Assembly (NCBI GenBank): GCA_965217775.1
Contig: CBDCJH010000002.1
Location: 1,888,001-1,952,000, forward strand
Reading direction: 5' to 3'
Origin: Acidobacteriota bacterium
GTDB taxonomy: Bacteria > Acidobacteriota > UBA6911 > RPQK01 > JAJDTT01
DNA: 64,000 bases
Of this stretch, positions 12,937 through 18,599 are shown piece after piece. The position numbers were made by a program, and so were the translations under genes. Each line of letters starts with the position of its first letter. Position 1 is the stretch's first letter. The notes beneath the pieces were generated by a model, which was given only the letters and a program-made list of their open reading frames with translations, made no database searches and was not told the origin of the DNA.

Positions 12937-15123
12937 ATGGCTAATGATAAATATATCGTCAAATCCTTAGGTACGATTGGAAGTGCGTTTTTCGGATCTT
13001 TTCGGACGCTTCGCGAAGTTCAGAGAAGGACGATTCCACCGATCCGTTCAGGGAAAGATGTCCTTGTAGCCTCGGCGACTGCGTCTGGCAAGACCGAAGC
13101 CATAGTGGCACCACTCATTTCAAGGACGCTGGATGGGACGGCAAGAGGCCTGCCCCGGATTCGCGTGCTTTTGACCGCACCAACCCGCGCCCTCGTCAAC
13201 GACTTGGCAGCAAGGATCGAGCCGCCGCTAACGCGGCTCGGATTGAGCTGCGGGCGCCAGACCAGCGATCACCGGGACAAAGGTAAGGAACCGTTCGTAC
13301 TTATCACTACTCCAGAATCGTTCGATTCGATGTTAGTGCGCGATGCGCGGTTGGAGGCTGGGAGGGTGACTGACCATCTACTTGCCGGCGTGTCGGCAGT
13401 ATTCATCGACGAGGCGCACCTCTTCGACGGAACTGCTCGTGGTGACCAAATGTCCTGGCTCCTAGGTCGTCTTCGTCGTCTGCGCCAACTAAATGCGGAC
13501 GGCGGCTCAAGCGACGCAAAGCGTTTACAGGTGTGCGCAGCCAGTGCCACCATCAGCGATCCGGGGGGTCTCGCGTATCGGCTCTTGGGAACCGATGCAG
13601 TCGCGGTCCAAGTTCCAGGCTTGAGGCAGATCGATGTATTCGGAAACTCGGCTGCACCTGACTGGTTTCCACTTGAATCGTCGATAACGATTGAGAACTT
13701 GCGCGATCGTCTGGGAATCGTGACATTCACAAATTTCCTCGAACAGGCGGAGAGACGAATCTGGCAGGCTTTGTCCAGCGGAGACGATGATCGCATGCGA
13801 AAAGCGCTTGTGTTCGTTCCAAGCCGCAAACTATCCGATGAACTCTCCACCCATCTCAATAGCACATTACCCTTGCACCGCGATCTGAAGGTGCTGCCGC
13901 ACCACGGTAGCTTGGCACAGGGTGTCCGGGAAAACTCTGAGCGGACGTTCTCCTCGACGCGCGACGCTGTGCTAGTAGCGACAACTACCTTGGAAGTAGG
14001 TGTCGACATTGGGGATGTGGACTTGGTCGTTCTTGTCGGTTCGCCACCCGGTACGCGCTCATTGTTGCAGCGGATTGGTCGGGCGGGCCGCAGAATCGGC
14101 CGCACTCGAGTCTTGGCTCTTCCTCGGACCGGGATCGAGCTCGCAGCCATCGCAAGCATGCTGATTTCCGCGCGGGACGGGATTCTGGAGCCCGAGGGAT
14201 ACGCTCGCAGGTGGTCCGTGTTCGTCCAACAAGCAGCCAGCTTCGTCGCTCAAGGTAGACCTCGCGGTCGGAGACGATCCGATTTGCTCGATTTAGCGCA
14301 GGATGTCTGGCCAGAGAAAGGGAGGGGAACGCCAGACGAGATCGTGGACCGACTACTCGACGCCGAGTATCTCGTCGAGGGTCGAGGCCGACTTGCGATA
14401 GGTGAGCATTGGGCAGATTTCTTCGACGTTGGTGGTCCGGGTATGCACGCAAATTTCGGATCGTCCAGTGGAGGCATTCCGGTGGTGGACGCCAACACTG
14501 GCGAGGTCGTCGCACACGTTGCTCAGAGGCCTTCCGAAGATAGAGAGATTGCTCTAGGAGGGCAACGATGGGACTTGCAAGCCATCGATGGCGAACTCCT
14601 ACTAAAACCCAAGGGAGCTGGACCTGTTCGCGATAGTTTTCAATACGCGGCGCGGCGTGGTCCGACTGATCTCGAATACGCTGTGCATGTAAGGCGTGGC
14701 TTAGGACTTGGAGAGGACGATGCACCGCTCATAAATTCGCCTCGTGGCTGGATCTGGCTTCATTTTGGTGGCAGCGCATATCAGACATTATTGTGCCATC
14801 TCTTGCCGGGCCTTAGTCCGACCGCTGGGTTGGCTGGAGTGGCGGTTAAGGGAATTCCTAGTGATGGTGAACTAAACCAACTAGCTACTGACCGTGACGA
14901 ATTGCGTGTTGCGGTAGAGGAACATTTTGAGGAACTTGAACGACTACTCGCGGTGGGTCCATATCAGCGTTACCTCACCAAGCATTGTCGTCAACGAGTT
15001 GTGACGGGGCTGTTTGACCTGCCGTCATTCCAAGACTGGCTGAAGACTCGCCGTGTGCGAGAAATAGCACCCGACGATCCGTGCTCGAAATACATATGTA
15101 CAGCACTCGTGGAAAGACGGTAG
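12937..15123 (+). CDS. Lhr/BrxHI-like SF2 DEAH-box helicase
   Basis: SATASGKTEA, PTRAL, TTPES, DEAH, SAT, HHGSL, ATTTLEVGVDIGDVD, QRIGRAGR. Confidence 0.9.
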   Translation: MANDKYIVKSLGTIGSAFFGSFRTLREVQRRTIPPIRSGKDVLVASATASGKTEAIVAPLISRTLDGTARGLPRIRVLLTAPTRALVNDLAARIEPPLTRLGLSCGRQTSDHRDKGKEPFVLITTPESFDSMLVRDARLEAGRVTDHLLAGVSAVFIDEAHLFDGTARGDQMSWLLGRLRRLRQLNADGGSSDAKRLQVCAASATISDPGGLAYRLLGTDAVAVQVPGLRQIDVFGNSAAPDWFPLESSITIENLRDRLGIVTFTNFLEQAERRIWQALSSGDDDRMRKALVFVPSRKLSDELSTHLNSTLPLHRDLKVLPHHGSLAQGVRENSERTFSSTRDAVLVATTTLEVGVDIGDVDLVVLVGSPPGTRSLLQRIGRAGRRIGRTRVLALPRTGIELAAIASMLISARDGILEPEGYARRWSVFVQQAASFVAQGRPRGRRRSDLLDLAQDVWPEKGRGTPDEIVDRLLDAEYLVEGRGRLAIGEHWADFFDVGGPGMHANFGSSSGGIPVVDANTGEVVAHVAQRPSEDREIALGGQRWDLQAIDGELLLKPKGAGPVRDSFQYAARRGPTDLEYAVHVRRGLGLGEDDAPLINSPRGWIWLHFGGSAYQTLLCHLLPGLSPTAGLAGVAVKGIPSDGELNQLATDRDELRVAVEEHFEELERLLAVGPYQRYLTKHCRQRVVTGLFDLPSFQDWLKTRRVREIAPDDPCSKYICTALVERR

Positions 15124-15426: not shown

Positions 15427-15684
15427 TCAGGCGCCGAGATCCTGGAACAGTTCCTCGGCGCTGTTGAATCGTTTGCCCCTGCCTTGGTCCAATTCCTCCA
15501 TTGCCTTGGCGGTAGCAGCATTCGGCACCCGGACAGCGAACGGCAGCCGCTTCTCATCTGCAACCCGCAGCAGCAACAAACGAATGGCGTCTGACACCGA
15601 CAAGCCCATTTCATGAAGAGCTTTTGCCGCTCGTGCTTTGGTGTCGCTATCGATCCGTGCGCGTACGACAGTATCGTGACTCAT
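15427..15684 (-). CDS. dinJ: RelB/DinJ family antitoxin (orphan)
   Basis: VVRARID...GLSVSDAIRLLL...LPFAVRVPNAATAKAMEEL...FNSAEELFQDLG. Confidence 0.85.
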   Translation of the reverse strand: MSHDTVVRARIDSDTKARAAKALHEMGLSVSDAIRLLLLRVADEKRLPFAVRVPNAATAKAMEELDQGRGKRFNSAEELFQDLGA

Positions 15685-15833
15685 CCACATGCCTCCGAGT
15701 TTATAGCTCTATTGTAGCTACATTAGTCCCTCATCGCTACGCTTGGAGGATCCCGGTCAATGGCAGATATGTTCCGTCTACAACTAAGAAAACACTTCGC
15801 TCACTTCAAGGTGGGGGAGCAGGAGCGGCGGCT

Positions 15834-16588
15834 GTGCGCCAGGCTAACTGGCACAAGATAGGCGGTGAAAGTCCGCTGAAACGAAGGATTAACCATCCAC
15901 GTTTCCCCGCGAGCCGTGCGTGGGCATTAGGAGGCTGTCCGAGAACTCGGTTTTCGTCCAAATCGACATCTTTAAGTTATTGATTTATAAGAGGATAGTT
16001 TTTTCGGAGTCGTGAGTTTTCGAGTTCTCGGACAGGCTCCTAGTAAGGGTGTCGGCGAAGCGTCGGTAGCGGTGCGTATGGGCAGGCTATTGAGCACCGA
16101 AAGCTCCATGATCGGAAGCGCCGAGACTGTAGTCGCGGTCGAAGGTAACACTGGCTGGACCGACAGGGTGAGGGACAGCCGGGCTCCGCGGTGTCATAGA
16201 ACCCATGCACGTACGTAAATCTCGTGTCGGGACCTGGGAGGGCTTGCTCTCTCCCCGGCGAGAGCCGGGGCCTTGTGGGAAAGGAGAAAGCCGTAACCCA
16301 TGAGGGGAGAGAGGAAGCAATCGGATTCATCCATGGTAGTGATGAAGCGGGCGAACAAGGAGGGGGAACTCTCTGCGGAGTCCGTGAAGCGAAGGGATAG
16401 AACCAAGGGGAATTCGGCTCACCAAAGTACGGACCGGACCCAGAGCCGGGTAGCCGTGACACAGGCGGGGGTCGGATACGGCTGGCGTCGCAGCCAGCCG
16501 TCATTACCTGAGGTAGGAGCCGTGTGCCTTAACGGGCACGCACGGATCTGCGCGGGGGGCGCTGGGCAACCGGCGTCCCTACCGCGAC
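15834..16588 (+). ncRNA. ORF-less group II (IIB-like) intron
   Basis: 5' GTGCG; domain V GAGCCGTGTGCCTTAACGGGCACGCACGGATC with AGC triad at 16518; domain VI ending CCCTACCGCGAC; recognisable DI-DIII motifs; no RT ORF in DIV. Confidence 0.9.
15930..16040. mobile_element. 111-bp MITE nested in intron domain I
   Basis: TIRs GGAGGCTGTCCGAGAACTCG / CGAGTTCTCGGACAGGCTCC (19/20 match), AT-rich core, TA on both flanks. Confidence 0.8.
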
Positions 16589-16715
16589 TTCCAGCCGCCG
16601 AATAGGAGCGGCGGAATTCTTGCCGCCGAACTCCAGTGGTGCAATGGGATAAAGAGGGAGCGGGGGAATGGAAGAATGGGCGACTGGAAAGTCGCCCCTC
16701 CCGTCGCCCCTCCCG

Positions 16716-18599
16716 TCACTTTTGCCGCAAGCACCAGCGGACGGCGTTCTTCATCAGGCGCTGGTACATGGGATGAAACAGCGGTTCGGCCGGGTGGCCG
16801 CTGGCCAGATGGCAGACTCTTCCCTTCCCGACCTCGCGGACCCAGCCGGCGGGGACTGCGATTCCGTTGTCCATACGACTCTCCAGAATCATGTGGACCT
16901 GACTCTCGTCGTAGAGGACAGGCGTGTGCTGCTCGTCCGCCGTGGTGAAATCGCCGACCCCCTCGGTGATGGGATGGTCCGGGTCCACGACCTCGACGCG
17001 GAAACGCTCGTAGGGTCCGTGGCCGATGTACCGGCCTCCCACCAGCTTCAGGTAGGGTCCGGCGGGAGGATAGAGACCCAGGGAGTTGTGGAGATTCAGG
17101 AAGGAGCCTCCCTTCTCGACGAAATCCGCCACGGCCCGCTCCTGATCCAGGGTCATCCAGGTCTTGATCTCCCCATGAAGGGGATCCACCAGAGTTCTCA
17201 AGAGTTCCCGGCCCTCGCCCACGCGTTCCACTTGACGGCCGTCCCGCAGAATGACCAGCAACTGGACCCGGGACAGGTTCTTCGCGGACAGGGCGTTCAC
17301 GTCCACGGTGAAGTGGGGAGTGACGCCGGAGGCCTGGAACACCAGACTCAGCGCTTTCCGGATCGGAGCGGGTGGATGGGGACTGTCCCCGATCAGGACC
17401 AGCGCATGGGCACTGGAGTCGCCGGGTTGGGGCGGACGGCCGTGGAAGGGAGCGTTGGGGACCGTGAGCTCCCGATAGACATGGGCAACCTGTGGGTCTC
17501 TGGGGCGCGTATGGGTGGTCCAGTACTGCAGTCCGTCGGGAATCCGGACATATTTCTGGACCTCGGGCAGGGAGAATCCGATGGCGATCCCATAGGCGAC
17601 CTCGTCGCGGAGCTCCACCAGGAGGTCCCGCAGCCGTTCCACCATGCCCGAACCGGTCCAGGAACCGAATCCGGGAACTACCTCCCGGGCGCCAAGTTCC
17701 TGGAGGCGCTCCAGAACCTCGATCCAGGCTGCGGTGTCCTTGCCCGCAGGATTGAATCGGATCCCGTTCATGACCAAAGGACCACCGAAAAGGACTTTCT
17801 CTTTCTGGAGATAGAGGGCCCCGGCTCCCTCGTCCCAGACCTCGTCCAGGGGCAAAAACTGGATGGACCGGGCCGAATCTCCCACGAATCCAGGACTCGA
17901 CAGGGCCGTCACCATCGACGGGTCCAGATCCGGCATCCCGGCCAAGAGACGCTCGCGGATCCTGGAGGAAGTGAGGATTTGGGTCACGCCCCCCTTGACC
18001 AGCGCGCCGACCAGAGGAGCGATGGGATCCAACCCCATCGGTTCGGCGGAGCGATACCAGCGCTTCTCCACTGGCTCGTAGGCCGAGGAGGTCCCCCAGG
18101 ATGGATCTTCCCAGATGTGGGTCAAGACCAGACGCCGGGCGGGCCGGATACCCTTGCCCGTGACCCGGTCCAGATAGGCCTCGACCGATCGGCCTCGGGG
18201 CAGGTCGATCAACAATGTCTCCCCATCCAACTCCACCCACCCGCAGTTGGCACTGGCAAATTGGTGGGAGAAGCCGGCGGCGTGAACTCCGGGACCCAGT
18301 TCCGCGTGGTGAGGGAGAAGTTGCGGTTGCGACTCGGCAGTCATCAGTCCTGTGGAGAGTACCAGAATCAACAACAAGCCAAACGGTCCGAGCCTCTTAC
18401 CAGGAGGGGCGATTTCCAGTCGCCTCTTTCTCCGTTCCGCCCTGCGCTCGTTCTCGTCTGTTTCGGCCGGAGTTCGGCGGTTGGAAACCGCCGCTCCCAG
18501 CGACTGACCATCGGGTCCGAGCCTTGAAGAATGCGGGATGGCTCCCAATACACTCGATCCCCCGAAACAAGCTGTCGAATTGGCCCCGTGAAATGACAT
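16716..18599 (-). CDS. MBL-fold plus ThuA (class I glutamine amidotransferase-like) domain protein; start uncertain
   Basis: ANCGWV...LIDL...LVLTH, VVPGFG degenerate MBL motifs; C-terminal GGSFLNLH...HPIT...DEQH...GKGRV...GH ThuA motifs; AGGAGG before ATG 18599. Confidence 0.7.
   Translation of the reverse strand: MSFHGANSTACFGGSSVLGAIPHSSRLGPDGQSLGAAVSNRRTPAETDENERRAERRKRRLEIAPPGKRLGPFGLLLILVLSTGLMTAESQPQLLPHHAELGPGVHAAGFSHQFASANCGWVELDGETLLIDLPRGRSVEAYLDRVTGKGIRPARRLVLTHIWEDPSWGTSSAYEPVEKRWYRSAEPMGLDPIAPLVGALVKGGVTQILTSSRIRERLLAGMPDLDPSMVTALSSPGFVGDSARSIQFLPLDEVWDEGAGALYLQKEKVLFGGPLVMNGIRFNPAGKDTAAWIEVLERLQELGAREVVPGFGSWTGSGMVERLRDLLVELRDEVAYGIAIGFSLPEVQKYVRIPDGLQYWTTHTRPRDPQVAHVYRELTVPNAPFHGRPPQPGDSSAHALVLIGDSPHPPAPIRKALSLVFQASGVTPHFTVDVNALSAKNLSRVQLLVILRDGRQVERVGEGRELLRTLVDPLHGEIKTWMTLDQERAVADFVEKGGSFLNLHNSLGLYPPAGPYLKLVGGRYIGHGPYERFRVEVVDPDHPITEGVGDFTTADEQHTPVLYDESQVHMILESRMDNGIAVPAGWVREVGKGRVCHLASGHPAEPLFHPMYQRLMKNAVRWCLRQK
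18403..18497. repeat. REPIN-like inverted REP pair
   Basis: GGAGGGGCGATTTCCAGTCGCC ... CGGCGGTTGGAAACCGCCGCTCC. Confidence 0.75.

Follow-up and report, generated by a model that had tools for sequence, protein, structure and literature searches.

We analyzed a 64,000-nt stretch of an Acidobacteriota genome (contig CBDCJH010000002.1; the whole stretch is the window, and coordinates follow its numbering unless another contig is named) and observe that positions 15834–16588 of its forward strand are occupied by a 755-nt group II intron, which we call W, that has no reverse transcriptase (RT) open reading frame (ORF) and that interrupts a repetitive extragenic palindrome (REP). W is very probably a non-autonomous member of a family of endonuclease-less, IIB-like group II introns which is found in one Acidobacteriota genus and whose exon-binding sites (EBSs) are complementary to REPs. 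In this family, EBS2 would read a 4–5-nt tag (GGAG, replaced by GTAG in one sublineage) that immediately precedes the palindrome on its 5′ side, EBS1 would read the final six bases of the 5′ arm, and EBS3 would read the first base of the loop, and these three readings together would lead the intron RNA to reverse-splice exactly at the junction of the 5′ arm and the loop.

Our analysis confirms the proposal of a first-pass annotation, made from the letters of the window, that removal of positions 15834–16588 restores a perfect REP hairpin and that the element removed is an ORF-less group II intron. The 5′ flank (15822–15833) is GGAGCGGCGGCT and the 3′ flank (16589–16600, + strand) is TTCCAGCCGCCG, the latter made up of the REP loop TTCC, the first T of which is intron-binding site 3 (IBS3), and the 3′ arm AGCCGCCG; with W excised, the 7-nt arms pair with 0 mismatches around this 4-nt loop. 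The intron opens with GTGCG at 15834 and terminates with ...CCGCGAC at 16588, i.e., it carries the conserved group II ends (5′ GUGYG and 3′ AY, here GUGCG and GAC), as do 13 of the 14 complete copies in the same genome, with copy S4 having GAGCG instead. The Rfam model RF02005 (group-II-D1D4-6) matched domain I at 15973–16203 with 85.4 bits (gathering score 49), and RF00029 (domains V–VI) matched over its full length at 16515–16588 (36.9 bits, slightly short of the gathering score of 40; E = 2e-5), with the alignment stopping exactly at the proposed 3′ splice site, 16588. A long copy that is free of the MITE (a miniature transposable element with inverted repeats) nested in W scores 166 bits with RF02005, and the lower score of W is explained by this MITE, which replaces a domain I hairpin. 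The RF00029 alignment places domain V, which holds the AGC triad, at 16517–16548 (+), and domain VI, with its CCUACC motif and a candidate bulged branch-point A at 16581, at 16550–16588 (+). Both domains look intact in this alignment, and the domain V helix shows two compensatory base-pair changes between the short and long forms of the intron (UG/CA for the former, GA/UC for the latter). Comparison of the aligned short and long copies identifies 16300–16510 (+) as a remnant of domain IV containing the decayed 5′ part of a former RT ORF, domain IV of W being short by ~1270 nt relative to the 1917-nt copies. The sole ORF in W (16300–16605) has no match in Pfam and represents, in decayed form, the beginning (first ~60 codons) of the intron-protein reading frame; a conserved mini-protein derived from it was considered and rejected, as both frame and start codon differ among the ORF-less copies. 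W is a group II intron with these boundaries.

The exon-binding sites of W are located where the first-pass annotation had placed them, and with the pairings it had given. EBS2 (GCUCC, 16103–16107, +) lies in the single-stranded stretch that the Rfam consensus structure assigns to this element, and all five of its positions form Watson-Crick pairs with IBS2 (GGAGC, 15822–15826, +), the GGAG of which is the 5′ tag of the REP, outside the stem. EBS1 (AGUCGC, 16131–16136, +) lies in the loop of a GCCGAG...CGAAGG hairpin, again the position expected from the consensus structure, and pairs with IBS1 (GCGGCT, 15828–15833, +), i.e., the final six bases of the REP 5′ arm, through five Watson-Crick pairs and one U-G pair. 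EBS3 is assigned by covariation to the A at 16196 (+), the base following GGUGUC, which pairs with the initial 3′-exon base; the presence of EBS3 in domain I, apart from the EBS1 loop, is a feature of subgroup IIB. Whole-intron minimum-free-energy folds did not reproduce the canonical six-domain map and were set aside, the EBS assignment having been made independently of them.

Comparison of 46 copies from six genomes of the genus demonstrated that the alignment columns of EBS2 and EBS1 vary among copies, and that they do so jointly with the flanks. These genomes are the one holding the window (G000; 6.43 Mb, 62% G+C) and G002, G004, G005, G006, and G007, the record with copies L031–L044 having been assigned to G002 on the basis that its ten copies share coordinates with ten G002 matches. 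For EBS1, AGUCGC is found with the target GCGRCT, AGUCCC with GGGACT, AACCCC with GGGGTT, AAUCGC with GCGATT, GGGUGC with GCACCC, GGUCGC with GCGACC, and GGAUGC with GCATCT; for EBS2, GCUCC is found with GGAGN, CCUAC with GTAGG, and CAUGC with GCATG. The third contact behaves in the same way, with an EBS3 of A facing T as the first 3′-exon base, G facing C, and U facing A, and with this pair formed in 45 of the 46 copies. EBS1 and IBS1 are fully paired in 42 of the 46 copies, and at least four of the five EBS2 positions are paired in 44. When the seven EBS types were permuted among their flanks (excluding L034, the 5′ end of which has been replaced), the observed assignment was the single best of 5040 permutations. 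This covariation, together with the permutation result, settles the EBS assignment and shows the recognition mode to be of the IIB type.

Examination of the flanks of the other copies, which the first-pass annotation had recommended as a check, showed that they are REPs in the large majority of cases. Rejoined flanks form a hairpin with 7-nt arms in 31 of the 46 copies at ≤1 mismatch and in 38 of the 46 at ≤2 mismatches, compared with 1.1% of trials using random flanks. In each of these 38 copies the insertion point is the junction of the 5′ arm and the loop of a tagged palindrome, and across all 46 copies the 5′ tag is GGAG in 37 and GTAG in 4. G000 itself contains >430 GGAG-tagged hairpins of the form GGAG-N-stem-loop-stem, the commonest stems being GGCGGTT (130 copies), GGCGATT (89), GGGGACA (63), GGCGACT (54), GGCGGCT (43), and GGGGGTT (22). 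The control tags GAGG, AGGG, CCTC, GCAG, and GGTG yielded ≤29 copies of any one stem, and the control tag GGGA yielded up to 38, its commonest stems being the same REPs one base out of register. The sequence GGAGNGGCGRCT is present at 137 sites in this genome, vs ~20 expected, and 97 of the 137 have a hairpin. We also identified a second REP family, GTAGGGGYRCCC, at 97 sites in G000, with a different tag (GTAG), a different stem, and a 5-nt loop; it is the target of copies S4, L068, L096, and L100, with insertion again at the stem/loop junction. GTAG is the classical REP tag (PMC3733652). Tandem arrays of REPs are visible in the intron flanks, and in the window a second GGAG-tagged REP, which is uninterrupted, follows directly downstream at 16605–16629 (+). 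By a crude ORF call, 13 of the 14 intron sites in G000 lie between ORFs, with one (copy F7) inside an ORF, and the REP in the window lies between relB and a ThuA-domain gene. A search of G000 for the Y1 transposase associated with REPs (PF01797; RAYT) gave three weak matches (22–39 bits), and one of the matching ORFs has a GGAG-tagged hairpin directly after it.

At the locus orthologous to that of copy F9, the REP is uninterrupted in G006 and in G007, which demonstrates that the intron entered a pre-existing REP. This result also bears on the notion that the two half-palindromes are the terminal inverted repeats of the element itself, i.e., that it is a DNA transposon with an intron-like core, as the mutual complementarity of the two flanks might suggest. 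We give this notion almost no credence: the same palindrome is present uninterrupted in hundreds of copies in the genome, an intact REP is seen at orthologous loci of sister genomes, the flanks differ among the identical copies F7, F9, and F10, and the ends of the element are canonical group II ends.

A separate consideration is whether these introns recognize the structure of a DNA hairpin, as class C (IIC) introns do, with the EBS matches being secondary. Insertion always occurs at the stem/loop junction, including in the second REP family (S4, L068, L096, and L100), and the strand bias described below suits single-stranded targets in which hairpins can extrude. Set against this are the presence of a full EBS2, the covariation of three EBSs with the target sequence, the location of IBS1 within the stem, which means that pairing needs the stem to be melted, and insertion within the palindrome rather than downstream of it. 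In addition, the sites of F7, L099, and L040–L042 match IBS1 and IBS2 despite being non-palindromic, and since 97 of the 137 GGAGNGGCGRCT sites are hairpins anyway, occupancy of hairpins is not clearly above what sequence matching alone would give. Recognition of structure in place of sequence is thus decidedly improbable, and the few copies in non-palindromic, IBS-matching sites leave the hairpin itself unproven as a requirement for insertion. Recognition of the REP sequence by the three EBSs is the reading that we adopt.

Among the copies outside REPs, L040–L042 (G004) have EBS2 CAUGC, EBS1 GGAUGC, and EBS3 U, and are inserted three times in one non-palindromic sequence (...GCATGGGCATCT up to the insertion point, followed by A...), which may represent the beginning of a gene or insertion sequence (IS) that is repeated. 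F7 (G000:C2:3929720–3931636) lies in a non-REP site with same-strand ORFs within 1–3 nt of both of its ends, and is probably a sense-oriented interruption of a gene; with IBS1 and IBS2 matching and IBS3 mismatched, the insertion looks like ectopic retrotransposition.

G000 contains 14 complete copies and two end fragments of the intron. Four copies are ORF-less (W, 755 nt; S2 and S3, 643 nt each; S4, 642 nt), and ten (F1–F10) are long copies of 1917 nt each, with the RT/maturase reading frame open in nine of the ten and frameshifted in F1. The first-pass annotation had advised a search for an RT-encoding relative with the same EBSs, and these ten long copies, nine of them intact, are such relatives: 13 of the 14 copies in G000, i.e., all but S4, share the EBS2, EBS1, and EBS3 of W. 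One further RT-encoding copy is present in G005. The intron protein, translated from F2, is 519 aa long and matches TIGR04416 with 351 bits (cut-off 300), and its residues 80–441 match solved group II RTs. Pfam identified RVT_1 alone in this protein, even at E values up to 5, with no HNH or other endonuclease domain at this threshold and no domain detected in residues 455–519. The nearest named relatives of the protein are from metagenome-assembled genomes labelled Acidobacteriota, and its best annotated relatives are ltrA genes of proteobacterial plasmids (52–58% identity). F7, F9, and F10 are identical in sequence and occupy different locations with differing flanks, which indicates recent movement.

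We made two further observations on the copies in G000. In F2–F10 (e.g., L010:138–1694 (−)) the protein frame is open through domains V and VI, with the stop located 1 nt before the 3′ splice site; that read-through of these domains is a feature of the class found no support, as the annotated ORF of a relative from Klebsiella ends 54 nt earlier, and the open frame may be incidental in G+C-rich sequence. The two end fragments are a 67-nt piece of the intron 5′ end that follows the 5′ half of a REP (G000:C2:3009691–3009757), with similar 61–67-nt 5′ fragments in G002, G006, and G007, and a 92-nt 3′ intron fragment followed by a REP 3′ half (G000:C2:3645111–3645202).

The ORF-less copies form a lineage of their own. 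All 22 of those analyzed, from G000, G005, G006, and G007, are 640–648 nt long, or 755 nt with the MITE, and this uniformity indicates one shared deletion. S2 is shorter than F2 by 1270 nt. Of the 5′ part of domain IV, ~225 nt are retained, with the former start region among them. The two are 97–100% identical across most of domain I (about positions 1–200) and 62–85% identical elsewhere (domains II–VI); the divergence outside domain I indicates that the short form is old and a separate lineage, and the contrast between the two regions suggests that this lineage is possibly mosaic, with its targeting domain recombined or converted between the short and long lineages. Short copies that are 100% identical are present in different REPs (L074 and L080; L086 and L092; L081 and L087), and the lineage contains five EBS1 variants and two EBS2/EBS3 variants, which together show that it has moved and retargeted. 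One ORF-less sublineage, judging from its EBSs and flanks, has switched to the GTAG-tagged REP family.

The first-pass annotation had described W as a non-autonomous retroelement mobilized in trans. This description stood as far as movement and retargeting of the ORF-less lineage are concerned; the trans step stays a proposal, and two genomes strain it. In G005, at least ten short copies accompany a single long one. G006 (a single contig, 97% complete) contains seven short copies (L066, L074, L080, L086, L092, L095, and L096), and the RT in it that comes closest to the family protein shows 36% identity; G007 (94% complete, with at least two ORF-less copies) has no RT match at E ≤ 1e-20. Mobilization in trans by the cognate protein leaves the copies in G006 and G007 unexplained.

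These two genomes feature in two further readings of the ORF-less lineage. In the first, the ORF-less copies are immobile remnants capable of splicing alone, either generated in situ by deletion or multiplied through duplication or recombination of DNA. Reviews describe bacterial ORF-less introns as rare and for the most part non-mobile (PMC4424553), a close RT is wanting in G006 and G007, W shows no sign of recent movement, and S2 and S3 lie 1.2 kb apart with at least 45 nt of common 3′ flank. We regard this reading as very improbable, as the near-uniform length of the 22 copies points to one shared deletion, the divergence of S2 from F2 outside domain I shows that it is no fresh in-place deletion, identical copies have wholly different flanks with the boundary located exactly at GUGCG...AC, and EBS1, EBS2, and EBS3 have changed jointly to suit new targets. 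In the second, the ~640-nt lineage is a parasite of the REP system comparable to a short interspersed element (SINE), freed from its cognate protein, which would read the same tag-plus-hairpin as the REP transposases and would follow or switch REP families by coordinated changes in EBS1–3. This idea stems from the G006 copies, which appear to have multiplied recently with no RT closer than 36% identity, and we consider it unlikely; if it were true, movement in G006 would occur via a distant heterologous RT or by a route free of any intron RT. Trans mobilization of the ORF-less copies by the long-copy protein is the reading that we retain.

The pair formed by S2 and S3 (G000:C2:4405417–4407265) is in the same orientation, with 3′ flanks that are identical over the shared stretch and 5′ flanks that differ, which suggests that the pair arose by duplication or recombination at the DNA level.

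The introns are strongly biased with respect to replication. In G000, dnaA is located at the cumulative GC-skew minimum (5.01 Mb), with the skew maximum near 1.70 Mb, and the intron sense strand runs with the replication fork in 13 of 14 copies; with the termini of the other genomes assumed to lie opposite dnaA, which counts against the weight of these figures, the same is seen in 10 of 10 copies in G002, 10 of 11 in G005 (excluding three fragments <400 nt, all three of which are also fork-oriented), and 7 of 7 in G006. Pooled, 40 of 42 copies are co-oriented with the fork (binomial p = 4e-10), a statistic that is overstated due to partial orthology between genomes (W/L076, S4/L068, and probably F8/L032). 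Since the sense strand runs with the fork, the strand bearing the IBSs is the lagging-strand template. Vacant tagged REPs in G000 are unbiased (47:50; Fisher p = 0.0015 vs introns). The bias agrees with the published pattern for endonuclease-less introns (PMC4424553, PMC8632793, PMC8919778), for which strands at the replication fork are described as serving as primers (PMC4424553) and among which RmInt1 favors sites in the lagging-strand template (PMC8632793).

The same bias could reflect selection for transcription along with leading-strand genes, i.e., for read-through, and not insertion at the fork. Group II introns are described as having no promoter of their own (PMC12584367), and ~8–9 of the 14 copies in G000 lie downstream of the neighboring ORF and share its direction by a crude, GC3-based ORF call. 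This co-orientation with the upstream gene is far weaker than that with the fork (13 of 14), vacant REPs have no orientation bias, and an insertion strand bias is on record for several intron classes (PMC8919778); selection for transcription is therefore quite unlikely to be the explanation, and we favor insertion at the replication fork.

Taken together with the EBS readings set out at the beginning, these observations are consistent with a mechanism in which the intron RNA would reverse-splice into the lagging-strand template and the nascent strand would prime cDNA synthesis, as in RmInt1 and other endonuclease-less introns. The long copies would supply the protein that splices the ORF-less copies and mobilizes them in trans. 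The unpaired tag may serve as a toehold for the invasion of an extruded hairpin. REPs would provide abundant, harmless, and never-saturated landing sites, and changes in the EBSs would let sublineages track REP subfamilies.

Several observations, beyond those from G006 and G007, weigh against this picture. Five of the 46 copies (F7, L099, and L040–L042) are in clearly non-palindromic sites, L034 is truncated at its 5′ end, and L033 and L075 are in degenerate palindromes with 3 mismatches. W has a score with RF00029 just below the gathering score, the G of its domain V AGC triad is opposite A where the usual partner is U, and the MITE replaces the GNRA hairpin in its domain I. It is also the sole copy in G000 opposed to the replication preference, and it is antisense to both of its neighbors. 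None of the genus's eight other genomes showed an empty allele of its site: the left flank of W has an orthologue in G007 alone, where it also bears the intron, and elsewhere there is a 74%-identical paralogue. Splicing and mobility of the family are inferred from sequence comparison, and no contig joint skipping 15834–16588 was found in the 4 of 23 sequencing runs (two RNA libraries and two of unrecorded type) mapped on 15600–16800. The run contigs in this interval are intron relatives, mostly MITE-free, and the RNA libraries contain contigs of the ORF-less form (in X15, one of 629 nt; in X17, one with the 3′ junction between intron and REP) in which DNA carry-over is possible; the run contigs neither show nor exclude expression or splicing.

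The window copy itself has a distinct history. Its orthologue in G007, L076, has the same flanks and the same length of 755 nt, with 748 of 755 positions identical. Both contain the MITE-like element, which in W is ~111 nt long (15930–16040, with no strand assigned) and has ~16-nt terminal inverted repeats (GGAGGCTGTCCGAGAA...), an A+T-rich center, and TA flanks, and which takes the place of a small GNRA-capped domain I hairpin that is CCC-GUGA-GGG in all other copies. The MITE is absent from 26 other aligned copies, and four further full copies of it are present elsewhere in G000 with 82–88% identity (G000:C2, 4661196–4661310, 2696214–2696329, 5060898–5061011, and 2781454–2781570). W is located at 1.904 Mb, i.e., beyond both the skew maximum at 1.70 Mb and the antipode of dnaA at 1.87 Mb. 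Given the MITE in domain I, the orthologue in a sister genome, and an orientation opposed to the replication preference and to the neighboring genes, W is probably a relic, long resident in the genome, of a family that is active, and it may no longer be mobile. Its upstream neighbor is relB, encoding a RelB antitoxin (15427–15690, −), and its downstream neighbor is the ThuA-domain gene (16716–18599, −). Further upstream in the window, 12937–15123 (+) encodes a DEAD/Helicase_C protein with a weak Cas3-like match at its C terminus. In G007, ~3.8 kb of DNA that is extra relative to the window (G007:C27:74862–78647) is present ~45 nt upstream of the orthologue of W.

Our search at the DNA level identified the family in 7 of the 8 other genomes of the genus and in none of the 32 genomes searched outside it. 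More distant relatives, with proteins 50–55% identical, are L045, L046, L048, L050, L052, and L053 from other Acidobacteriota and an intron on a Klebsiella plasmid; five of these were scanned with Rfam (L045, L048, L050, L052, and the Klebsiella plasmid intron), and all five are of the D1D4-6 subtype. None of the seven relatives examined has REP-like flanks, which indicates that homing to REPs is not a property of the whole subtype.

Bacterial group II introns are usually present in few copies, as specific homing sites are scarce and soon filled. Tuning the guide to a harmless repeat with hundreds of copies gets round this scarcity. The seven EBS variants and the targets matched to them make up a retargeting series produced by nature, of the sort that serves targetron design, and every insertion splits a REP, so that the introns may interfere with REP/RAYT dynamics. 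The ORF-less lineage is a proliferating bacterial one found in several species, whereas reviews call such introns rare and short-lived.

We found no description of REP homing by the EBSs of a group II intron in the full-text literature searched (subscription journals and supplements lay outside its scope), and palindromes are unmentioned in the main text of the group II intron surveys that we examined. The closest item is a table in Tobes & Pareja 2006, in which a group II intron of P. putida KT2440 is listed as REP-associated in 2 of 9 copies (PMC1525189). The specialized contexts named in the Introduction of Gomes et al. 2025 are IIC terminator targeting and a start/stop-codon family, with no others given there (PMC12584367).

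Three groups of introns, and one of insertion sequences, invite comparison with the present family. RmInt1 of Sinorhizobium meliloti is a class D, endonuclease-less intron of the IIB type, and its ORF-deleted derivatives can be mobilized with the protein supplied in trans. The present family resembles it in having RT and maturase domains and no endonuclease domain, in the use of EBS1/2/3-IBS pairing against a multicopy, non-essential target, and in the preference for the lagging-strand template (PMC8632793). The target of RmInt1 is the insertion sequence ISRm2011-2, whereas that of the present family is a 25-nt host palindrome, and the likeness is one of features. The introns of Thermosynechococcus elongatus are chloroplast-like IIB introns with an endonuclease domain. 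Among them, TeI3/TeI4 comprise ORF-less introns that are mobilized in trans and whose EBS families have diverged (Mohr et al. 2010, PMC2882425), and they resemble the present family in that ORF-less derivatives come from a single ORF deletion, have retargeted EBS1/2/3, and are more numerous than the ORF-containing copies (PMC2882425). They differ in that they insert into other introns, into an IS200-family element, and at various intergenic sites, with no REP family among the targets described, and in that access to the target is there ascribed to high temperature (PMC2882425). Class C introns also use abundant intergenic palindromes, have no endonuclease domain, and are biased to the lagging-strand template (PMC4424553, PMC8919778, PMC12584367). 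They read the structure of the hairpin, with short EBS1/3 pairings, and insert downstream of a stem-loop (terminators or attC), whereas in the present family, of subtype D1D4-6, EBS2 is present and covarying, the REP sequence is read by all of EBS1–3, and the intron enters within the palindrome; the two marks of class C, the lack of EBS2 and insertion downstream of a stem-loop, are thus absent. Elements of the IS110 family, such as IS621 with its guide RNA, read their target by means of an RNA guide. Like the present family, IS1397, ISPpu9, ISPpu10, ISPsy8, ISPa11, and IS621 use REPs as specific and harmless landing sites (PMC1525189). These elements are DNA transposons or recombinases and not ribozyme retroelements, and base pairing by a ribozyme would be a third mode of targeting REPs, beside the transposase-based and guide-RNA-based modes.

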